Of a stretch of 24,322 nucleotides of DNA, positions 8,254-24,322 are shown piece by piece. Source of the stretch: a virus; IMG/VR virus record IMGVR_UViG_3300014911_000466; one strand, written 5' to 3'. How positions within the stretch are numbered: position 1 is the first letter of the stretch; each line of letters begins with the position of its first letter. Below the pieces are notes generated by a model that did no database searches, had not been told where the DNA came from, and was given only the letters and a program-made list of their open reading frames with translations. The translations under genes and the position numbers were made by a program.

Positions 8254-8392
8254 TTCTTTTCCTCCGCTTTTTTATTACTCGAAAAGTCAAATCGCGAATG
8301 TTATCGAGGTAATTAAGCAAAAGCTGAAAGCCATACCTTCCGCCCTTGTATAGGATGCGTTTACCCCTAAAAATCAAATAAACATCACTCAT
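8246..8392 (-). CDS. Small basic protein, 48 aa (not in ORF track)
   Basis: MSDVYLIFRGKRILYKGGRYGFQ...; ATGA overlap with the upstream stop. Confidence 0.55.
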   Translation of the reverse strand: MSDVYLIFRGKRILYKGGRYGFQLLLNYLDNIRDLTFRVIKKRRKRIA

Positions 8393-9180
8393 TTTTGGAC
8401 AGCCTCCAGCAAAGTTTTTTGGCTTAAAATCTCATCTAACCGACTAATCCAAGCCTTAAAGAATCGTTTTCTTTCCTCAGAGTTTTTACAGCTCCAATTT
8501 CCCAGCTTTGAGTTTACTGGGCGTGTCCATGCTGTGCTATCGAAACTGTCAATAAAGCCTTTAACAAGCCTCAAAGCTCTAAGCTTCAAACCAAAAACAT
8601 GAAGTTTCTTGTCTGGGAGTAGTTTTCTTGCAAGCCAGCATGTAGCGTAAATAATCATTATTTCCGGCTCAACACATAACATTCCAATTGCAAAATAGTC
8701 AAATTCAGAAAGAATGCCACTTCCCTGATACAGCTTTATGCATCTTTCTATGCTTTTCGGCTGTTTATTCCATCCCTGAACCGGAATAAGCCAATTAACA
8801 TAATCAAACTTCTCCGTATATTTAACGACATTCTGAAATGTCCTTTCAATATTAGTAACTTCTGTGGAAAGCCAAAGATTGCCAGGATGATAGTCATCGC
8901 AGTAATCTGGAACTGTAGCGTAAACTTCAGCATCCGGAAGAATACGCCTCAAATAATTATGAAGCTTAACAATCCTGTAGATATGTCCTTTCGGATAGTC
9001 TTTAACTTGTGGATTTCTGAAAATCTCAATGCCACTGTCAACTATAACGCTTTTAATAGCCTTTCTATGCCTGTGGATGTAGCCTAAAGCAGGATTATTA
9101 GCGTTAATCAATATATATGGCCAATCCACATCGGAAGGAGGCAAAGTATAAAATCTAATCACGGCTACATCAGCTCCCAA
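8389..9180 (-). CDS. tRNA-guanine transglycosylase / DpdA-like enzyme
   Basis: Motifs VDSG, PDY, IPVQG, AIG, LHVFG and DSFDSTAW in TGT-barrel order; the start may be GTG 9162. Confidence 0.75.
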   Translation of the reverse strand: MGADVAVIRFYTLPPSDVDWPYILINANNPALGYIHRHRKAIKSVIVDSGIEIFRNPQVKDYPKGHIYRIVKLHNYLRRILPDAEVYATVPDYCDDYHPGNLWLSTEVTNIERTFQNVVKYTEKFDYVNWLIPVQGWNKQPKSIERCIKLYQGSGILSEFDYFAIGMLCVEPEIMIIYATCWLARKLLPDKKLHVFGLKLRALRLVKGFIDSFDSTAWTRPVNSKLGNWSCKNSEERKRFFKAWISRLDEILSQKTLLEAVQK

Positions 9181-9497: not shown

Positions 9498-9745
9498 TGA
9501 ATCACTTTAAGCGATTTCGTAATCTCATCAAATTCGAGAGTTTTAACTTGGAATCCTTCGTTGCGGATTAGTTTAGCGAGTTCTTCGGGTAATTGCTCTC
9601 CTTCATACAGTACGATGCGTGAACCGCTAAAGTAGGCTACTTTCTCAATGTTGCCTTTCTCGTCTATCGTGTAAAAGATGGTTCCCAATTCGTGAAGCGA
9701 ATGCTTAAGCAATTCCGGATTCTTAATCCGAGCAAACAAGCTCAT
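9494..9745 (-). CDS. Hypothetical protein
   Basis: ATGA-coupled ORF. Confidence 0.6.
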   Translation of the reverse strand: MSLFARIKNPELLKHSLHELGTIFYTIDEKGNIEKVAYFSGSRIVLYEGEQLPEELAKLIRNEGFQVKTLEFDEITKSLKVIQ

Positions 9746-9852
9746 TCTTTTGCCTCCTTTAGGATTTGGTAGATTATCATCGCTCTAACCTCCGGATTCT
9801 CCTCTTTTGCTATTGCACGACGCAACCAGCGAATCTTAGCCCTATTCACCAT
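9742..9852 (-). CDS. Small protein, 36 aa
   Basis: ATG 9852 with SD GGTGAGG; the longer track start overlaps the upstream gene. Confidence 0.5.
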   Translation of the reverse strand: MVNRAKIRWLRRAIAKEENPEVRAMIIYQILKEAKE

Positions 9853-10117
9853 TTTCCTCACCAAAAACTCCGAGTATTTTTGCAAGATAGAAATCGTGAA
9901 GACGTAAGGTAACAAACTCGCCTGGATGAACACGGCCAGAGTGAATAGCTAACCCATGTTTACTCGCAAATTTTCTCTTACAAACGATGCAATATGGATG
10001 TTTATCTACAAGTTCCCATGCTTTGCGATACGCTTCTATAAGTTCTTCTTTGCTCAAGCTTTTAATTTTCTCTCTAAGGACAAATCTCTCCATCTTATTC
10101 AAATCTCGCGGAATCAT
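9842..10117 (-). CDS. C2H2 zinc-finger protein
   Basis: CIVCKRKFASKHGLAIHSGRVH = C-x2-C-x12-H-x4-H. Confidence 0.85.
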   Translation of the reverse strand: MIPRDLNKMERFVLREKIKSLSKEELIEAYRKAWELVDKHPYCIVCKRKFASKHGLAIHSGRVHPGEFVTLRLHDFYLAKILGVFGEENGE

Positions 10118-10852: not shown

Positions 10853-11232
10853 TCAGAACCCTCCTTCTTTTCTTGTGGCGGAGCCATAACCGTTCCAATT
10901 TGGCTTGTAACTTGCTTGGCTATCTGCTTGGCTTCCTCAATCTGCTTCTCCAAAATCTCACGATACTCTTTAGTGGCGTAAGGTAATCTTGCAGAAGGAG
11001 TCAATAGCTGCCATTGCTCCCACAAATAAACAAGCGGACTACAAGTTTTGTTCAAAAGTTCTCTTAGAACAACCTGACCAAGCTGAGTTGTTGTAGAGCC
11101 AGCGCCACAATTCGCCAAAGTAACATTAACAGCTATTCTAACCGCTTCATTATAATGCTTCTCCGCAAACTTCAGAAAGCTCTCCCATTCGGGCGTGCCA
11201 AGAGGATAAGGAACCTTCTGGTAACCTCTCAT
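10849..11232 (-). CDS. Hypothetical protein
   Basis: Coupled ORF in the operon. Confidence 0.6.
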   Translation of the reverse strand: MRGYQKVPYPLGTPEWESFLKFAEKHYNEAVRIAVNVTLANCGAGSTTTQLGQVVLRELLNKTCSPLVYLWEQWQLLTPSARLPYATKEYREILEKQIEEAKQIAKQVTSQIGTVMAPPQEKKEGSE

Positions 11233-11453
11233 TCCTCAAAAGCCTCCTCCCATTCCTCCAGAAACATCTTCTTCAGAAACTTCTCTATCCGCTCTACTCG
11301 CCTTTCCAGCTCCTCAAACTCCGCGTAGGTAATGTGCTCCTCACTTCTGGCTTGCAATTCAGCAAGCTCATTGTCCAGAATATTCAGCGCACGGTTAAGC
11401 TCATCATTATTCGTGACAGACTTGAATCTGGAACGGCTACACATCCAACTCAA
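11229..11453 (-). CDS. Short coiled-coil protein
   Basis: Heptad pattern LERRVERIEKFL. Confidence 0.55.
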   Translation of the reverse strand: MSWMCSRSRFKSVTNNDELNRALNILDNELAELQARSEEHITYAEFEELERRVERIEKFLKKMFLEEWEEAFEE

Positions 11454-11456
11454 ACC

Positions 11457-11951
11457 TCAAAAACCCCCCCCTTTCCGTTCGAGAATTTCCTTCCTCAGGT
11501 TGTAGAGGAATACGTCGAGTTCTTCAATTGGAACAATCATTAATTCAGGAAATTTTCTCAGAAACGGTTCCAGATACAACAATCGTTTACGTTCAAAGTT
11601 TGGTGTTACAGCACAAATAAGCCTATACACCCTATTCTTTGTTGTTTCCTCTACAAATGCCTTGACTACCAGAAGCCCAGCAACGTCTCTCAAAACTGAG
11701 TCTCTACTGTTAACCACATCTATAATTACCCAACCAGACGAAGTCCCATCAAGATTTGTGACAATATCTGGAACGAAACCTTTACTGAAGGCTCCAGAAG
11801 CCCTATAAACTATCAAACCCATACCACGAATAATTTTCTTAGCCCAATTCACCAACTCATCAGGAGAAAGTTCCTTGAACAACTTGAATCTCCTGAAAAT
11901 CACAGAAGGCTTAATACACTCACTGGGGACAGAGAGAAAATCAACACTCAT
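11457..11951 (-). CDS. Possible PD-(D/E)XK-fold protein
   Basis: FVPDIV...VIIDVVN; the catalytic Lys is not apparent. Confidence 0.4.
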   Translation of the reverse strand: MSVDFLSVPSECIKPSVIFRRFKLFKELSPDELVNWAKKIIRGMGLIVYRASGAFSKGFVPDIVTNLDGTSSGWVIIDVVNSRDSVLRDVAGLLVVKAFVEETTKNRVYRLICAVTPNFERKRLLYLEPFLRKFPELMIVPIEELDVFLYNLRKEILERKGGGF

Positions 11952-12136
11952 TCTATATCTACCTCATCTTGAAGTTCAATGCCGGAAATCTCCAAGTTGA
12001 GAGAAGGATAGTTGTTTTTCCATTCTTTCGCCTTTTTCACAGCTTCATCAAAATTTTCCGCTAAAACCGTCAATTCCTCAAATACACTATCAAGGGTATC
12101 ATGGCTTTCTCTGAAGTAAACCTTCCATATCTTCAA
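11948..12136 (-). CDS. Small acidic protein
   Basis: ATGA-coupled ORF. Confidence 0.6.
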   Translation of the reverse strand: MKIWKVYFRESHDTLDSVFEELTVLAENFDEAVKKAKEWKNNYPSLNLEISGIELQDEVDIE

Positions 12137-12137
12137 C

Positions 12138-12335
12138 CTAAGAACCAGCCTCCTTTTCTCTGTGCTTTTTGAGAAATTCTTTAATCGCTTCAGTTACTAC
12201 ATCGCTTTTGCTTCTGTATTTTGGCAATCCAAATTCATCGATTTGGCTTTTCATGAATTCATCGATAGCCTTTAGAAGCTCTGTAGGTACTCTGACCGTT
12301 GTCCATTTATCTTGGTTTTGTGACATCCTCATCAC
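12138..12335 (-). CDS. RHH regulator, paralogous to the integrase N-terminal domain (Cro-like position)
   Basis: TTVRVPTELLKAIDEFMK...KSDVVTEAIKEFL versus ATVRIPRELLNSIEEFLK...KTDVVTAAVREFL. Confidence 0.85.
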   Translation of the reverse strand: MMRMSQNQDKWTTVRVPTELLKAIDEFMKSQIDEFGLPKYRSKSDVVTEAIKEFLKKHREKEAGS

Positions 12336-12436
12336 AAACTCTCTTCTGTAACCTACCTATATATATAAAATTTGTGACCATGATGTTACAAATTTTAGAG
12401 TAAAATTATTATAGATTTTGTCACATTTATGTAACA
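12319..12436. promoter_or_regulatory. Divergent promoter region with repeated TGTNACA operator-like heptamers
   Basis: TATA-like runs near 12358-12370 and 12405-12413; heptamer pairs at 12319/12330, 12373/12384 and 12419/12430. Confidence 0.7.
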
Positions 12437-13749
12437 TGGAGTTTCGCATGCAGAAAAAATATCCTGAAGAAAAAGAAGATAAACATGCAACAGTGAGAAT
12501 TCCGAGAGAACTCTTAAATTCCATAGAGGAGTTCCTCAAAACAAACGATGCAAAAAATAGAGGATTACTTCACAAGACAGATGTAGTTACAGCAGCAGTA
12601 AGAGAATTCTTAGAGGAGAGAGGATTCTTTCCAAAACCATCGAAGCCACCATTAGAACATTTCAATTTAAACGAAGACGGAGTCATAATTATTGACAGAA
12701 TAATAGAGCCCGGAAAAGAAAGACTTATCCAAGTTTACTTTAAGCCACAAGGCATACTATGCGAATATCACAACTCAAACGACTGTTATCACATTCGCTA
12801 TGCATACACAAAAGAGGACATCAAAAAAGTATTAAGAAAACATTACAAAGAAGGTTGGAAAATTCCAGACCCAGACAATCCAGAAGAATGGTGGGGCTGC
12901 CCGGATTTGAACCGGGGTCCCGAGAGCCCGAGTCTGCTTGTTGATTGGCGAAAACTCCGTAAAGATTTTCTTGTTTGGTTGAATAGTCGAGATTTGGCTT
13001 TTGATTATAGGCGTAGTATTGTCAATTATTTGGATAGGTTTGCGCCGAAACTTCGTAATGGTATGGATGTTGTCCGTTTGTTTGATAGTTTATCGGCGGG
13101 CCAGAAGCATTGTTTATTGTTTTCGCTTAGGAACTTGTTTAATTTTTGTGAGTTGGCTGGTTTTGATTCTGCTTTTATTGATGGTTTGCGTAAGGCTTTG
13201 CCTAAGGATTCTCGTTTTGTGGATAGTTATGTTCCGAGTGAAGAAGTTGTTAGGCAGAGTATAGGGAAGTTGCGGCGCATTCCAGCCAAGTATAAGGCGG
13301 TCTATAGGCTATTGTTGGAGTCTGGGTTGAGGCTTAGGGAGGCTGTTAGGCTAAGTAATGAATTTCATGAATTATATGAAAAATCTGAAATGTATGAAAG
13401 GTTTGTTTGTGTTCCGCTTTTCTGGGTTCGAGCAAGCAAGAAAAGCTTTTATGCCTATTTTATGCGTGAAACCGCAAAAATGCTATGGAATAACGGAGAA
13501 AAGCTTAGTGCAGATGCTACAAGTAAGGTTTGTAGGCGGTATGGGTTGGTGGCTCCAAAATATTTGCGGAAATTCGTTTTCCATAAAATGCTTGAGTTGG
13601 AAATTCCAGAGGGAGTAGCCGACTTCATTCAGGGAAGGGCTCCCAAAACGGTAGGTGAAAGACATTATGCCAATCTTAAACGTTTAGCAGACAAATACTA
13701 TCCAAAATATGCGGAATACTTGGAGAGGTTAAGGAATTCTGTTCTATAG
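12436..13749 (+). CDS. int: SSV1/pTN3-type tyrosine integrase with N-terminal RHH and Zn-binding domain, interrupted by attP
   Basis: Catalytic motifs SGLRLREA, KYLRK, IQGR and HY; tRNA-antisense peptide WWGCPDLNRGPESPS inside the ORF. Confidence 0.9.
   Translation: MEFRMQKKYPEEKEDKHATVRIPRELLNSIEEFLKTNDAKNRGLLHKTDVVTAAVREFLEERGFFPKPSKPPLEHFNLNEDGVIIIDRIIEPGKERLIQVYFKPQGILCEYHNSNDCYHIRYAYTKEDIKKVLRKHYKEGWKIPDPDNPEEWWGCPDLNRGPESPSLLVDWRKLRKDFLVWLNSRDLAFDYRRSIVNYLDRFAPKLRNGMDVVRLFDSLSAGQKHCLLFSLRNLFNFCELAGFDSAFIDGLRKALPKDSRFVDSYVPSEEVVRQSIGKLRRIPAKYKAVYRLLLESGLRLREAVRLSNEFHELYEKSEMYERFVCVPLFWVRASKKSFYAYFMRETAKMLWNNGEKLSADATSKVCRRYGLVAPKYLRKFVFHKMLELEIPEGVADFIQGRAPKTVGERHYANLKRLADKYYPKYAEYLERLRNSVL
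12889..12935 (-). other. attP core: 3' half of tRNA-Pro(CGG) including CCA (47 bp)
   Basis: Minus strand AGA CTCGGGC TCT CG GGAC CCCGG TTCAAAT CCGGG CAGCCCC A CCA; anticodon CGG, T-arm and acceptor 3' strand present; 5' half absent. Confidence 0.9.
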
Positions 13750-13796
13750 CTTTGCTCTATCAAAATTTTTATGCCAAAACGACAACTTTACTTTAG

Positions 13797-14045
13797 GTGA
13801 CAAACTTGAAGGTTTGGCTGTTTCTGTTATGGCTTGTAATAGTAGGATATCTGTTCGCCTTTATAACAATGAATTCGCCATACTCGCAAGGATTCGAGAT
13901 CAATATAGGTGGTGACAGATTATATGTTACCGCATACAATTGCTTCCTCCTCATATTAACGTTCGCTATTCCTTGCCTTATCGCCTCAATACTCACTGAA
14001 CTTACAGAATTGGCATATCGAAAAATTAAAAAGCAAAAGCCGTAA
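13797..14045 (+). CDS. Small two-TM membrane protein
   Basis: Two hydrophobic helices and a basic C-terminus; lies downstream of the integrase. Confidence 0.6.
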   Translation: MTNLKVWLFLLWLVIVGYLFAFITMNSPYSQGFEINIGGDRLYVTAYNCFLLILTFAIPCLIASILTELTELAYRKIKKQKP

Positions 14046-14192
14046 CTTCACCATTTTCTTTCTATCCAGTCTGAAAAATCGAAATTTATATTACCTGATA
14101 TTTTTCGTATCTTCTTCTTATGTATTGCTGGAGTTGCAGTGGCGCGCGCTATAAAAATTTGACACGACGACGAGTGGTAACAATCTACAAAG

Positions 14193-14528
14193 TTACCATC
14201 TGAACTTCATCATAGGCCGTAATTTTGAAGCGTCTGGCAAATCATCTACTGTTTTTCCTATCTTATTTAGCCACCTTTGAATAACCCCCCAATCGTGAAT
14301 GCGCTTATGGCATTCATAGCAATAAAGATGCAAGTTTCCTTGTGCATCATGATGGAATTCGCCACCTCTACAAGAAACTTGGTAAGCTCTACCATTTTTG
14401 GAAACCCTTAAACTGCCTTGAAGCTTCTTTCCACAAAATTCACATGCAGTTTCGAATTGGTTAAATCCAGTATGGAATTTTAACCCTTGCTTCTCCAAAT
14501 ACTTCAACTTTTCATCGTCTAAGCCCAA
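14193..14528 (-). CDS. HNH-type Zn-binding endonuclease-like protein
   Basis: CEFC...HH...GNLHLYCYECHKRIH. Confidence 0.65.
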   Translation of the reverse strand: MGLDDEKLKYLEKQGLKFHTGFNQFETACEFCGKKLQGSLRVSKNGRAYQVSCRGGEFHHDAQGNLHLYCYECHKRIHDWGVIQRWLNKIGKTVDDLPDASKLRPMMKFRW

Positions 14529-15205
14529 AGCTTATCGGCCTCCCTTATTTTTGAAAGTATTTTCCTTGGTGACTTATGAACATAATTCAATGCTGTTTCA
14601 ATCCTTGCGAATTTCGCGAAGTCTTGCAGCTCAAATGGATCCATTACATCGCTTAAATGAGTAAGCCTTTGATGCCTAAACCAGTGAACCCAAATATTTG
14701 GATCCAACTCATGCAGTATCTGCCATGCTCTTTGACGAGTTAAATTGAACGGTTTTCTAATGCCTTTCTCTTTACAATAATTTAGCCAGTCAATAATGTA
14801 TTTGGATAATGGATCCAACAAGCGAATGTCAACGTGATCCATAACCACTTTTAGTCCATTCTTAGCTCTGCCCCTTTTCAGAACTCTTATTCGCATTCTC
14901 ATAATCTTCTCATTTTCGACTTCTCCAAATTGGAAGTCATCGAGAGTTACTCCTTCCCACACATCCACGGATCCGTCCGGTAACTTTTTCACACGGCCGA
15001 CAATCTCGCTGATACGTCTCGCACTTAAATAGAGCAGAGCAATCAAAGCCTTATTTCTCATCTTCTGCTCTTTGGGCGTTAATCCACTCTTCAAACCAAA
15101 GCCATAATCCATCATATCAACACGGGAAATCAAACCTTCAATATAGTTCCTTCTAACAGCCATCAAACCCTCAGTAGTTCTACGTTTAGCTCCCCCCTTC
15201 TTCAT
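14519..15205 (-). CDS. Second tyrosine recombinase (catalytic domain only, Xer-like)
   Basis: SARRISEI, HWFRH and C-terminal NY; the usual LGH is replaced by AKF. Confidence 0.85.
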   Translation of the reverse strand: MKKGGAKRRTTEGLMAVRRNYIEGLISRVDMMDYGFGLKSGLTPKEQKMRNKALIALLYLSARRISEIVGRVKKLPDGSVDVWEGVTLDDFQFGEVENEKIMRMRIRVLKRGRAKNGLKVVMDHVDIRLLDPLSKYIIDWLNYCKEKGIRKPFNLTRQRAWQILHELDPNIWVHWFRHQRLTHLSDVMDPFELQDFAKFARIETALNYVHKSPRKILSKIREADKLWA

Positions 15206-15226
15206 ATTCCCACCATCTAATGGCTT

Positions 15227-15254
15227 ACTTAACCTTATTAGCGTAAGGTAAAAT
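15227..15254. other. dif-like 11-6-11 inverted-repeat site
   Basis: ACTTAACCTTA TTAGCG TAAGGTAAAAT; the arms match at 9/11. Confidence 0.6.
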
Positions 15255-15264
15255 AAACATTATT

Positions 15265-16254
15265 TCACCCTTGAAAGGCTGTTTTCTTTTCTTTTTTAGG
15301 TTTTGTCTTAATTAAAGAATATATGGCTTGGTTTCTGGGGACGTTTTGGAGCGCTTGCCGTTTGTCGATTGCTTCTAAGACTTCTAAGCCTAAGTCTGTT
15401 AGGTCATACCAGTAGGTTGATTTTTTCCTTATTGGAACGATGAGGTCTCTTGCTTTGCATCGCGTTAATGCATCTTTGTATTTTTGAGGGAGCGCGTCAG
15501 GGTTTCGCTCACGGAACCGTTCATACGAAATCATGCCTTTCTCTCGAATAAGCTCCATTAGTTCGATGTCTTCTGGCTTCAGCCTTTTAATGATGTAGTC
15601 CACTCTTGACTCTGCAAGGGCATCTTTCACTCTTACTATTACCTCGTCGACTAAGGCCATTCTCATCTGGTCGTATTCTTGGTAGACATCTTTGGGTACA
15701 GGTTCAAACACGTTGGTTTCAATCCATTCTTTACGTCTTTTAGGTTTCCAGCCTTTATAGTCCTGGTCCCACAGTACTCTGTCATATTTGTAAACGCCTC
15801 TTTTAGGAATGAAAACTTCATGTGTGTATTTCTGCATGATCTGATAGGTTGGCTCGGTGGGATCCACCATAGTAGCTATTAATACAGCTAAGCGAGTGGC
15901 CAAAACGTCGAATCCTCCTTTAAACGCGTCCCAAGCTCTGTCATATTGGGTTTCAGCCTTGTTGCTGTGGGCTCCGAAATCATCGTAAATCAAGATTGGC
16001 ACTCGCATGTGAAGCTTGTTTAAGGTAGGCACTCTTTCAGGCTCGCCTTTCTCAACTTTATACATTAGCCCCGAAAGATTAAATACGAAGCTTTGCAGAA
16101 CCTTGTCCCAGTCTTTATACCATGTATATGCAAGCTGCATGGCAAACGTTGTTTTTCCGCCGCGCTGCACGCCCCAAACCACAATCCACATCCATTCATC
16201 ATTAAGAATAGCATTCCATATGTCCCTTACTACACGCGGCCTTCTCTCCGTCAT
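15265..16254 (-). CDS. P-loop ATPase with C-terminal winged-helix-like domain
   Basis: Walker A GVQRGGKT, Walker B ILIYDD; C-terminal wHTH-like region ending YDLTDLGLEVL. Confidence 0.8.
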   Translation of the reverse strand: MTERRPRVVRDIWNAILNDEWMWIVVWGVQRGGKTTFAMQLAYTWYKDWDKVLQSFVFNLSGLMYKVEKGEPERVPTLNKLHMRVPILIYDDFGAHSNKAETQYDRAWDAFKGGFDVLATRLAVLIATMVDPTEPTYQIMQKYTHEVFIPKRGVYKYDRVLWDQDYKGWKPKRRKEWIETNVFEPVPKDVYQEYDQMRMALVDEVIVRVKDALAESRVDYIIKRLKPEDIELMELIREKGMISYERFRERNPDALPQKYKDALTRCKARDLIVPIRKKSTYWYDLTDLGLEVLEAIDKRQALQNVPRNQAIYSLIKTKPKKEKKTAFQG

Positions 16255-23645: not shown

Positions 23646-24038
23646 GTGGCGAGAAAAATTAGAGTTAGGCGAAGAGGCTATTGGCGCGGGCCCTATGTGT
23701 ATCGTCGCCGAGGCAAGCTGATACGGGTTAAACGCCACTATGTCGGTCCAACAACCTACATGGCGAGAGACGTGGGCAAGCCTGGGCGAGGCAAAAAGCT
23801 GATAGAGATAGAGCCCGGAAAACTTAAGAAGTACGGTTATTCAACTGACAAGAATGCGAGGGCTCGACGTAGGGCTTTAGCCAAGGCGGTTAGGGCGTAT
23901 GGCGCAACATCTGTGTTCAGAATGCTTAACGCGCAGGTTGTGCTGCGTAAATCTGCCAGAACCGGAGAGAGAGCCAGAGACAAGCGCATTTTCAAGGCTG
24001 ACCGAGACTGGGTTAAAAGACGGTACATGCAGAGGTGA
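23646..24038 (+). CDS. Highly basic 130-aa putative nucleoid protein
   Basis: SD GAGGTGA before GTG 23646; R/K-rich; DVGKPGRG, GKLKKYGY, VFRMLNA and IFKADRDWV motifs. Confidence 0.75.
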   Translation: MARKIRVRRRGYWRGPYVYRRRGKLIRVKRHYVGPTTYMARDVGKPGRGKKLIEIEPGKLKKYGYSTDKNARARRRALAKAVRAYGATSVFRMLNAQVVLRKSARTGERARDKRIFKADRDWVKRRYMQR

Positions 24039-24049
24039 ATGACTCACTC

Positions 24050-24322
24050 TTGAAAATACGTAAGTTAGCCTCCACTTTTCTGATTATTTGTTTAGCTTTG
24101 CTTCTCTTTCGCGCTTTACCCAACTTTGCGGGTGCTCGGCCCGCAGAGTGGGTTTTGGTTGAGAGAGGAGCTAATTTTGAGCGCTGGTTTAACGGGACGC
24201 ACTATAAATGGGTTAGTGCCCCGCAGTGGGTTTGGGACGGCTCGGCTTATGTTCCATACATTTTTAAGGATAGATATGCAAGTGAAGGCTATTATCAGGT
24301 TCAGACTGGATTGATAGGAGCG
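24050..24322 (+). CDS. 5' part (signal peptide) of the junction-spanning adhesin
   Basis: TTG 24050 (or GTG 24035, overlapping the upstream TGA) gives MKIRKLASTFLIICLALLLFRALPNFAGA..., in frame with 1..2127. Confidence 0.85.
   Translation, partial: MKIRKLASTFLIICLALLLFRALPNFAGARPAEWVLVERGANFERWFNGTHYKWVSAPQWVWDGSAYVPYIFKDRYASEGYYQVQTGLIGA
24200..24322. repeat. Terminal direct repeat, right copy (circular assembly overlap)
   Basis: Identical to 1-123. Confidence 0.97.

Follow-up and report, generated by a model that had tools for sequence, protein, structure and literature searches.

The virus record IMGVR_UViG_3300014911_000466 of IMG/VR (24,322 nucleotides; "the window" hereafter means this whole stretch of DNA) is a circular mobile element of Bathyarchaeia with an SSV-type, or suicidal, tyrosine integrase, and the detachable half of this integrase is, judged by its sequence, a genuine regulator-family protein. 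Because the two ends of the window overlap exactly over 123 nt (1-123 = 24200-24322), the sequence closes on itself as a complete circular element of 24,199 bp with an intact integrase gene. The explanation that best accounts for the observations overall, with a probability of roughly 0.6, is a self-splitting integrase with a detachable regulator that acts on its own divergent promoter. Suicidal integrases are viewed as uniting gene, att site and directionality control in an "all-in-one" module. The int(N) remnant, regarded as a pseudogene, is here a complete, conserved and predicted DNA-binding protein with candidate operators.

The integrase open reading frame (ORF) encodes 437 amino acids (aa) from the ATG at 12436, with alternative starts at TTG 12418 and ATG 12448; both ATGs are kept in a relative, L085. 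Residues 1-151, used as the query of an exhaustive HMMER search, matched 231 cluster representatives at E<=1e-3, 58 of them at E<=1e-10. Members of this family are mostly stand-alone proteins of 120-140 aa that cover query residues 5-145 and end in ...GW(K/R)IPxx, exactly where attP begins in the fusion. The N-terminal 150 residues of the integrase are therefore a whole, independently viable protein, since their homologs mostly stand alone and terminate at the position of attP. The family was present in 41 of 401 sampled Bathyarchaeia genomes, for the most part in locations adjoining neither a tRNA nor an integrase gene. An uncharacterized protein family, composed of a ribbon-helix-helix (RHH) and a CxxCx4CxH domain, is thereby defined in about a tenth of the sampled genomes.

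An earlier sequence-only reading of this DNA had described the N-terminal unit as an RHH followed by a Cys/His domain, and structure prediction, RHH matches and invariant residues all bear this description out. An AlphaFold model of the unit, built from a 40-member family alignment, has a mean predicted local distance difference test score (pLDDT) of 91.8. Nearly all structural alignments of its residues 13-69 (VIA, Z 3.2-4.7) are to RHH proteins, among them Omega, PutA, ParD, NikR, pRN1 ORF56, SIRV1 SvtR and Arc, and Pfam RHH_1 is matched in 6 of the 40 family members. This segment is thus predicted to adopt the strand-helix-helix fold, and at the family level carries the sequence signal, of the MetJ/Arc/CopG RHH class. 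The model gives residues 70-145 four strands and two helices, at pLDDT >90; the motif CEYHNSNDCYH lies within this part, at residues 109-119. D87, C109, C117 and H119 are invariant across the family alignment; at position 112, most members have Cys and others have His or Asp. The motif thus appears from its conservation to be a CxxCx4CxH putative metal site, which precedes a helix in the family and is present in this element as the His variant, CxxHx4CxH. The closest relative reads CEFCQTNDCYH at the same place.

No Pfam match was found for the metal-site domain at E<=0.01 in any of the 40 family members, no PHROG family matched it, and a Foldseek comparison of the N-terminal model with the PDB returned nothing at E<=0.001. 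Searched as part of the larger model, the domain had no clear structural match, and Atlas searches returned solely "hypothetical" clusters of the same RHH-metal-site family. Two known domain types were considered and set aside: the SWIM zinc finger (CxCxnCxH), which differs in spacing, and the NikR-type domain, whose sole sequence support (E 0.002) probably comes from the RHH. A homodimer prediction for two copies of the N-terminal unit, made with the family alignment, scored 0.38 against a mark of 0.42 and was not used either way.

Downstream of attP, the polypeptide is an SSV-type integrase. Residues 265-427 match PF16795, Phage_integr_3, at E 1.9e-35 (122.6 bits vs a cutoff of 27), and the C-terminal 269 residues match the integrase family phrog_5127 at E 1.7e-53. 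The same part matches, at E ~1e-19, the PDB catalytic-domain chains 3uxu, 3vcf and 4dks, annotated "Probable integrase," which we take to be SSV1 Int. The motifs SGLRL, KKSFYAY, KYLRKF, IQGR and RHY lie within residues 296-411 and agree with the consensus of 70 aligned relatives, so that the conserved catalytic residues of an SSV-type integrase (Arg, Lys, xxR, Arg/His and the Tyr nucleophile) are present by alignment. The full-length AlphaFold model has a pLDDT of 90.9. The PF16795 match, together with the 47-nt tRNA identity of the attP site described below, confirms the earlier proposal that attP stands in frame ahead of a catalytic SSV-type integrase.

The attP core (Table 1) is the reverse complement of the anticodon stem, CGG anticodon loop, T-arm, acceptor and CCA end of a tRNA, of which Rfam recognizes the T-arm, acceptor and CCA; a search of the window for tRNA genes found none. 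An exact 33-nt attP search over one genome per prokaryotic species returned 46 loci, 43 of them labeled Bathyarchaeia, Bathyarchaeota or Bathyarchaeales and 3 only "Thermoproteota archaeon" or "uncultured archaeon." Eight of the 46 are tRNA-Pro(CGG) genes that match attP over 47 nt, an identity that breaks off at the CCA end and, at its opposite edge, within the 5' strand of the anticodon stem. The attP site is therefore contained in the int ORF and is identical in sequence to part of a host tRNA gene, and the eight Bathyarchaeia loci substantiate tRNA-Pro as the target named in the sequence-only reading. The bin labels of two relatives disagree with a Bathyarchaeia host, P0004 being placed in Methanomethylicota and P0124 in Archaeoglobales (NCBI bins); both labels probably reflect mis-binned mobile DNA. 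In the full-length model, pLDDT falls below 50 in a single segment, residues 153-165, the peptide specified by attP. Because this sole low-confidence segment coincides with attP, the recombination site is predicted to encode a flexible linker between two autonomous folding units. The anticodon base in attP is G in the window (12889-12940; CGG) and A in L085 (3479-3530; UGG), and the choice between two proline isoacceptors may turn on this one base.

Junctions of integrated relatives give insight into how the gene is divided. The contig L001 carries an attL junction in which 93 nt of unrelated sequence with stops are followed by a tRNA-Pro-like 3' part and then Int(C). Database homologs mostly begin at or near the tRNA-derived peptide, as is expected of int(C) fragments from integrated copies. 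Four natural attR junctions of relatives (L004, L095, L096 and L097) each retain an intact Int(N) ORF of 150-156 aa with the RHH-metal-site architecture. These ORFs read antisense across a complete tRNA-Pro(UGG) gene, with C-terminal ends ...WWGCPDLNRGPESPSLGA or ...EEWWGCPDLNRGPESPSLGA before a TAG stop that is the antisense of the D-loop. The TAG occupies the same place in the 46 Bathyarchaeia tRNA-Pro loci, except for two with TGG and three in which the sequence ends too early. When the window was joined in silico at position 12888 to tRNA-Pro(CGG) of four host loci, the product was a protein of 169 aa with the same tail, SLGA, and all four joins showed in-frame stops upstream of the int(C) side. 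The regulator-like unit, followed in frame by attP, is thus part of a 437-aa protein in the free form and of a 169-aa protein in the modeled integrated form. The split of int into int(N) and int(C) upon integration is observed in relatives and modeled in silico for this element. The sequence-only reading had proposed that integration frees a regulator: the release of a free RHH-metal-site protein is upheld by the four junctions of relatives and the 169-aa in-silico product, whereas a regulatory activity is a possibility suggested by the features of the int promoter.

The int gene is transcribed divergently from a gene for a 65-aa RHH protein, which is 47% identical to the integrase RHH, has weak matches to 56B_RHH, RHH_1 and Arc-like PHROGs, and is, by this similarity, a paralog of the integrase RHH. 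The 100-nt region between the two genes contains three palindromes of the form TTTGTSAC-N6-GTNACAAA, and none occurs elsewhere in the window. In L085, an 83%-identical relative, O2 and O3 are unchanged and the O1-O2 spacer has diverged. The fetched loci, 438 kb in all, contain just five copies of the motif, each directly upstream of an RHH gene encoding an (A/M)TVR(I/L)P strand; the bearing loci are L005, L060 and L084, and two of those RHH genes are members of the stand-alone family. Binding of the palindromic candidate operators by an RHH dimer is inferred from this pairing of site and gene. At L084 (G207:C1, 1408-2192), two tandem small RHH genes with an MTVRIP strand follow a single operator palindrome; this looks like another element with the same RHH and operator pair, lacking the metal-site domain.

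A second relative preserves the arrangement with different components. The integrase RHH of L003 is of another subtype, its divergent 55-aa neighbor is a paralog of that RHH (40% identity), and the intergenic palindrome pair reads AATCA-N7-TGATT. Regulator, partner and sites therefore appear, from these sequences, to change together within a constant layout.

In this gene, an entire protein of the RHH-metal-site family takes the place of the short N-terminal RHH usual in the clade. As the junctions of relatives and the in-silico product show, recombination with the tRNA gene cuts the ORF inside the linker. The 5' part keeps its promoter and start codon and reads through the antisense tRNA to the D-loop TAG, giving a free protein of ~169 aa, and the recombinase part loses both promoter and N-terminus. 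In the proposed mechanism, an RHH dimer would bind the three palindromes, sites that would be shared with the paralogous 65-aa RHH. Prior to integration, the full-length enzyme would autoregulate int; afterward, the released Int(N) would persist and regulate its own and the leftward promoters. The released 169-aa protein probably regulates the divergent promoter of the element, and the RHH probably also supplies the multimerization that SSV-type integrases need from their N-termini. By analogy with the immunity of mycobacteriophage BPs, the regulatory state would be tied to the physical state of the genome, and control of lysogeny by integration-dependent immunity might follow. A stricter version, in which a single archaeal gene confers such immunity because the Int(N) released by integration silences the leftward operon and prevents superinfection, is advanced tentatively, as a possibility somewhat short of even odds.

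The main rival to a regulatory Int(N) is that the RHH-metal-site unit is a recombination accessory only, which multimerizes and tethers the integrase to DNA, and that the leftover Int(N) is functionless. The unit would then be likened to the N-terminal multimerization region of SSV1 and SSV2 or to the arm-binding domain of lambda Int. Recombination and regulatory roles are not exclusive, and an exclusively accessory role is considered unlikely. It fails to anticipate that the unit belongs to a family whose members mostly stand alone, away from integrases or tRNAs, that stand-alone homologs are preceded by the same palindromes, and that the Int(N) ORFs are intact in four of four junctions. In addition, the palindromes are situated in the promoter, 450-570 nt from the core, with none nearer, and no half-site occurs within ~450 nt of the attP core, which argues against arm sites. 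Other observations weigh against a regulatory Int(N), several of them in favor of the accessory role. Most intact integrases of the clade have a short RHH before attP, so that a recombination role in multimerization fits as well as a regulatory one; because the N-termini of IntSSV1 and IntSSV2 are also responsible for dimerization and tetramerization (PMC8371274), the RHH may serve recombination first. Both parts, int(N) as well as int(C), have been described as inactive pseudogenes, with mixed evidence on transcription of int(N) (PMC8371274). The structural Z values of the RHH (<=4.7) are low, as expected for a 45-residue domain, though consistent. The palindrome pattern was derived from the same locus, making the chance expectation of 0.11 occurrences in the window optimistic. 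The four attR junctions are on short metagenomic contigs of 551-795 bp, from relatives in tRNA-Pro(UGG).

A final consideration on the same side is that neither the fetched flanks of the 46 Bathyarchaeia tRNA-Pro loci nor four complete genomes yielded this exact element integrated at tRNA-Pro(CGG). Searches by tblastn with the N and C parts gave nothing in the 46 loci and only antisense-tRNA matches in the four complete genomes. Comparison of Int(C) with five genomes that carry the N-terminal family yielded one contig-end fragment (G194) and no complete provirus. The integrated form anticipated by the sequence-only reading, with Int(N) translated across the att junction, is accordingly documented in the four relatives and missing for this element itself.

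The origin of the fusion is suggested by comparisons among relatives. L005 has a stand-alone family member, preceded by the same operators, that lies directly upstream of a short-RHH int(N) abutting tRNA-Thr. In sequence, the present gene looks as if such a regulator gene had taken the position of the short RHH in front of attP-int(C). Nearest relatives differ by module: P0124 (82% identity) and P0125 (60%) for the RHH; P0273 (93%), whose RHH is unrelated, for the metal-site domain; and P0001 and P0007 (91%) for Int(C), although P0001 reaches only 30% identity in the metal-site domain. The RHH, metal-site and Int(C) modules thus appear to have separate histories, and these different affinities are matched by an abrupt shift of base skews at attP (12400-13400), from +0.25 to -0.24 for AT and from ~0 to +0.43 for GC. 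Exchange at att sites between co-integrated elements is described for suicidal integrases, with hybrids arising via tandem integration (PMC7253208). Regulator and recombinase modules are reshuffled by exchange at attP and between domains.

Two accounts would deprive the fusion of significance. The first takes it as a neutral mosaic without designed coupling, formed by att x att recombination of co-integrated elements or by deletion between adjacent genes. The distinct nearest relatives of the three modules, the skew shift at attP, the recorded hybrids of suicidal integrases and the separate, adjacent regulator and int genes of L005 would all fit such an origin. Nevertheless, at least four RHH subtypes are found in an in-frame RHH-Zn-attP arrangement that has a conserved ...P(D/E)P...EEWWG junction; this recurrence argues for retention by selection, and a mosaic origin is itself compatible with function; a purely neutral fusion is regarded as improbable. 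The second account holds that the ORF is an assembly chimera of integrated and episomal forms, to which the composition shift at attP could also be attributed. Given that the contig self-closes through its exact terminal overlap and that the ORF is equally continuous in the independent contigs L085 and L003, this account merits very little credence. Because the same in-frame junction is found in independent sequences (P0124/L085, P0001/L003, P0014 and P0017), the fusion is not an assembly accident.

A related 27-kb element, L002, has a 31-residue duplicate of the integrase C-terminal end (11464-11556; 77% identity) just downstream of its intact int gene, which may be a remnant of an earlier exchange. 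An ORF of the same element, 9591-10058, was considered as a frameshifted second N-domain and rejected as an unrelated hydrophobic protein.

Table 1. Coordinates of the integrase gene, its attP site and the divergent promoter in the window.
Feature	Position	Strand	Basis or remark
Whole integrase ORF: RHH, metal-site domain, attP-encoded linker, SSV-type integrase	12436-13749	+	Open frame, PF16795, full-length model
Predicted ribbon-helix-helix domain, residues ~13-66; recognition strand HATVRIP at 12484-12504	12472-12633	+	Model and RHH matches
Beta-rich domain with putative metal site, residues ~70-145; CEYHNSNDCYH at 12760-12792	12643-12870	+	Family alignment and model
attP core, 47 nt, equal to the 3' part of Bathyarchaeia tRNA-Pro(CGG); plus strand encodes linker WWGCPDLNRGPESPS	12889-12935	tRNA sense -	tRNA loci, Rfam
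Int(C): helical core-binding region and catalytic domain	12940-13746	+	PF16795, phrog_5127, PDB chains, consensus of relatives
Int(C) motif SGLRL	13321-13335	+	Consensus of relatives
Int(C) motif KYLRKF	13558-13575	+	Consensus of relatives
Int(C) motif IQGR	13627-13638	+	Consensus of relatives
Int(C) motif RHY	13660-13668	+	Consensus of relatives
Divergent 65-aa RHH gene, first of a long leftward operon of small genes	12138-12335	-	Similarity to integrase RHH; PHROG repressor families
O1, operator-like palindrome	12317-12338		Overlaps start of leftward RHH gene
AT-rich TATA-like run	12356-12368		Between outer palindromes
O2, operator-like palindrome	12371-12392		
O3, operator-like palindrome	12417-12438		Overlaps int ATG

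Elsewhere in the element, an ORF at 24035-24322 runs on into 1-2127 across the circle junction and encodes a large protein with CBM96 and Ig-like domains. A second, small tyrosine recombinase of 228 aa (14519-15205, minus strand) scores 27.0 bits against PF00589, just below the cutoff of 27.1, and its gene is followed by that of a 111-aa Cys/His HNH-like protein (14193-14528). The P-loop ATPase encoded at 15265-16254 (minus strand) matches PHROG families named "DnaA-like replication initiation protein" (phrog_5484, E 1e-14); from this similarity, it may be a replication initiator and a link to spindle-shaped viruses. In the PHROG comparison, the product of 8389-9180 (minus strand) is weakly similar to queuine tRNA-ribosyltransferase (E 3e-4). 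Positions 11000-15300 had no blastn match in a phage collection, and a scan of viral contigs with the full integrase protein found no relative.

If Int(N) acts as proposed, the int(N) "pseudogenes" of suicidal integrases would be functional, at least in Bathyarchaeia. The proposal gives Int(N) a concrete, testable function and points to a minimal mechanism by which a mobile element could sense its own integration. For the elements of Bathyarchaeia, an uncultured class of archaea that is very abundant, it would also be the first candidate for a lysogeny switch.

The N-terminal unit bears some resemblance to RHH regulators of archaeal viruses and plasmids, such as SIRV1 SvtR and pRN1 ORF56/CopG, with which it shares the predicted RHH fold and palindromic sites that overlap promoters. 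SSV1 F55 is likewise an RHH transcription regulator. NikR also joins an RHH to a C-terminal metal-binding domain, and the family profile matches NikR weakly (E 0.002). In contrast to SvtR, ORF56/CopG and NikR, the C-terminal domain of the present unit is without a detectable PDB or Pfam relative, and those regulators lack a fused recombinase.

Among integration systems, mycobacteriophage BPs offers a close parallel in logic: in both, attP is placed within the gene of a DNA-binding regulator (a predicted one here), and integrated and free genomes encode different forms of the protein. In BPs, attP interrupts the repressor gene, the integrase gene is separate, and truncation strips a degradation tag (PMC4557955, PMC3694055). 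Immunity of the BPs type comes solely from the truncated product of the integrated genome, the viral form being inactive or unstable. Here, the integrase occupies the same ORF as the regulator-like unit, and the integration-dependent immunity of BPs is for that reason an analog rather than a relative. The present system differs further in that regulator and integrase form one polypeptide parted by integration, in its RHH fold and in its archaeal host.

Also close are the SSV-type integrases IntSSV1, IntSSV2, IntpTN3 and IntpT26-2, which belong to the same catalytic family, PF16795. As in the present enzyme, their attP lies within the ORF and corresponds to a tRNA gene's 3' part, integration divides the gene into int(N) and int(C), and hybrids form by att exchange. 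An RHH in the Int(N) of suicidal integrases is not mentioned in PMC8371274 or PMC7253208. The hosts also differ, being Sulfolobales or Thermococcales for the SSV-type integrases and Bathyarchaeia here. A further distinction concerns int(N), which in this element encodes, rather than a short integrase-specific segment, a complete protein of a free-standing family accompanied by candidate operators.

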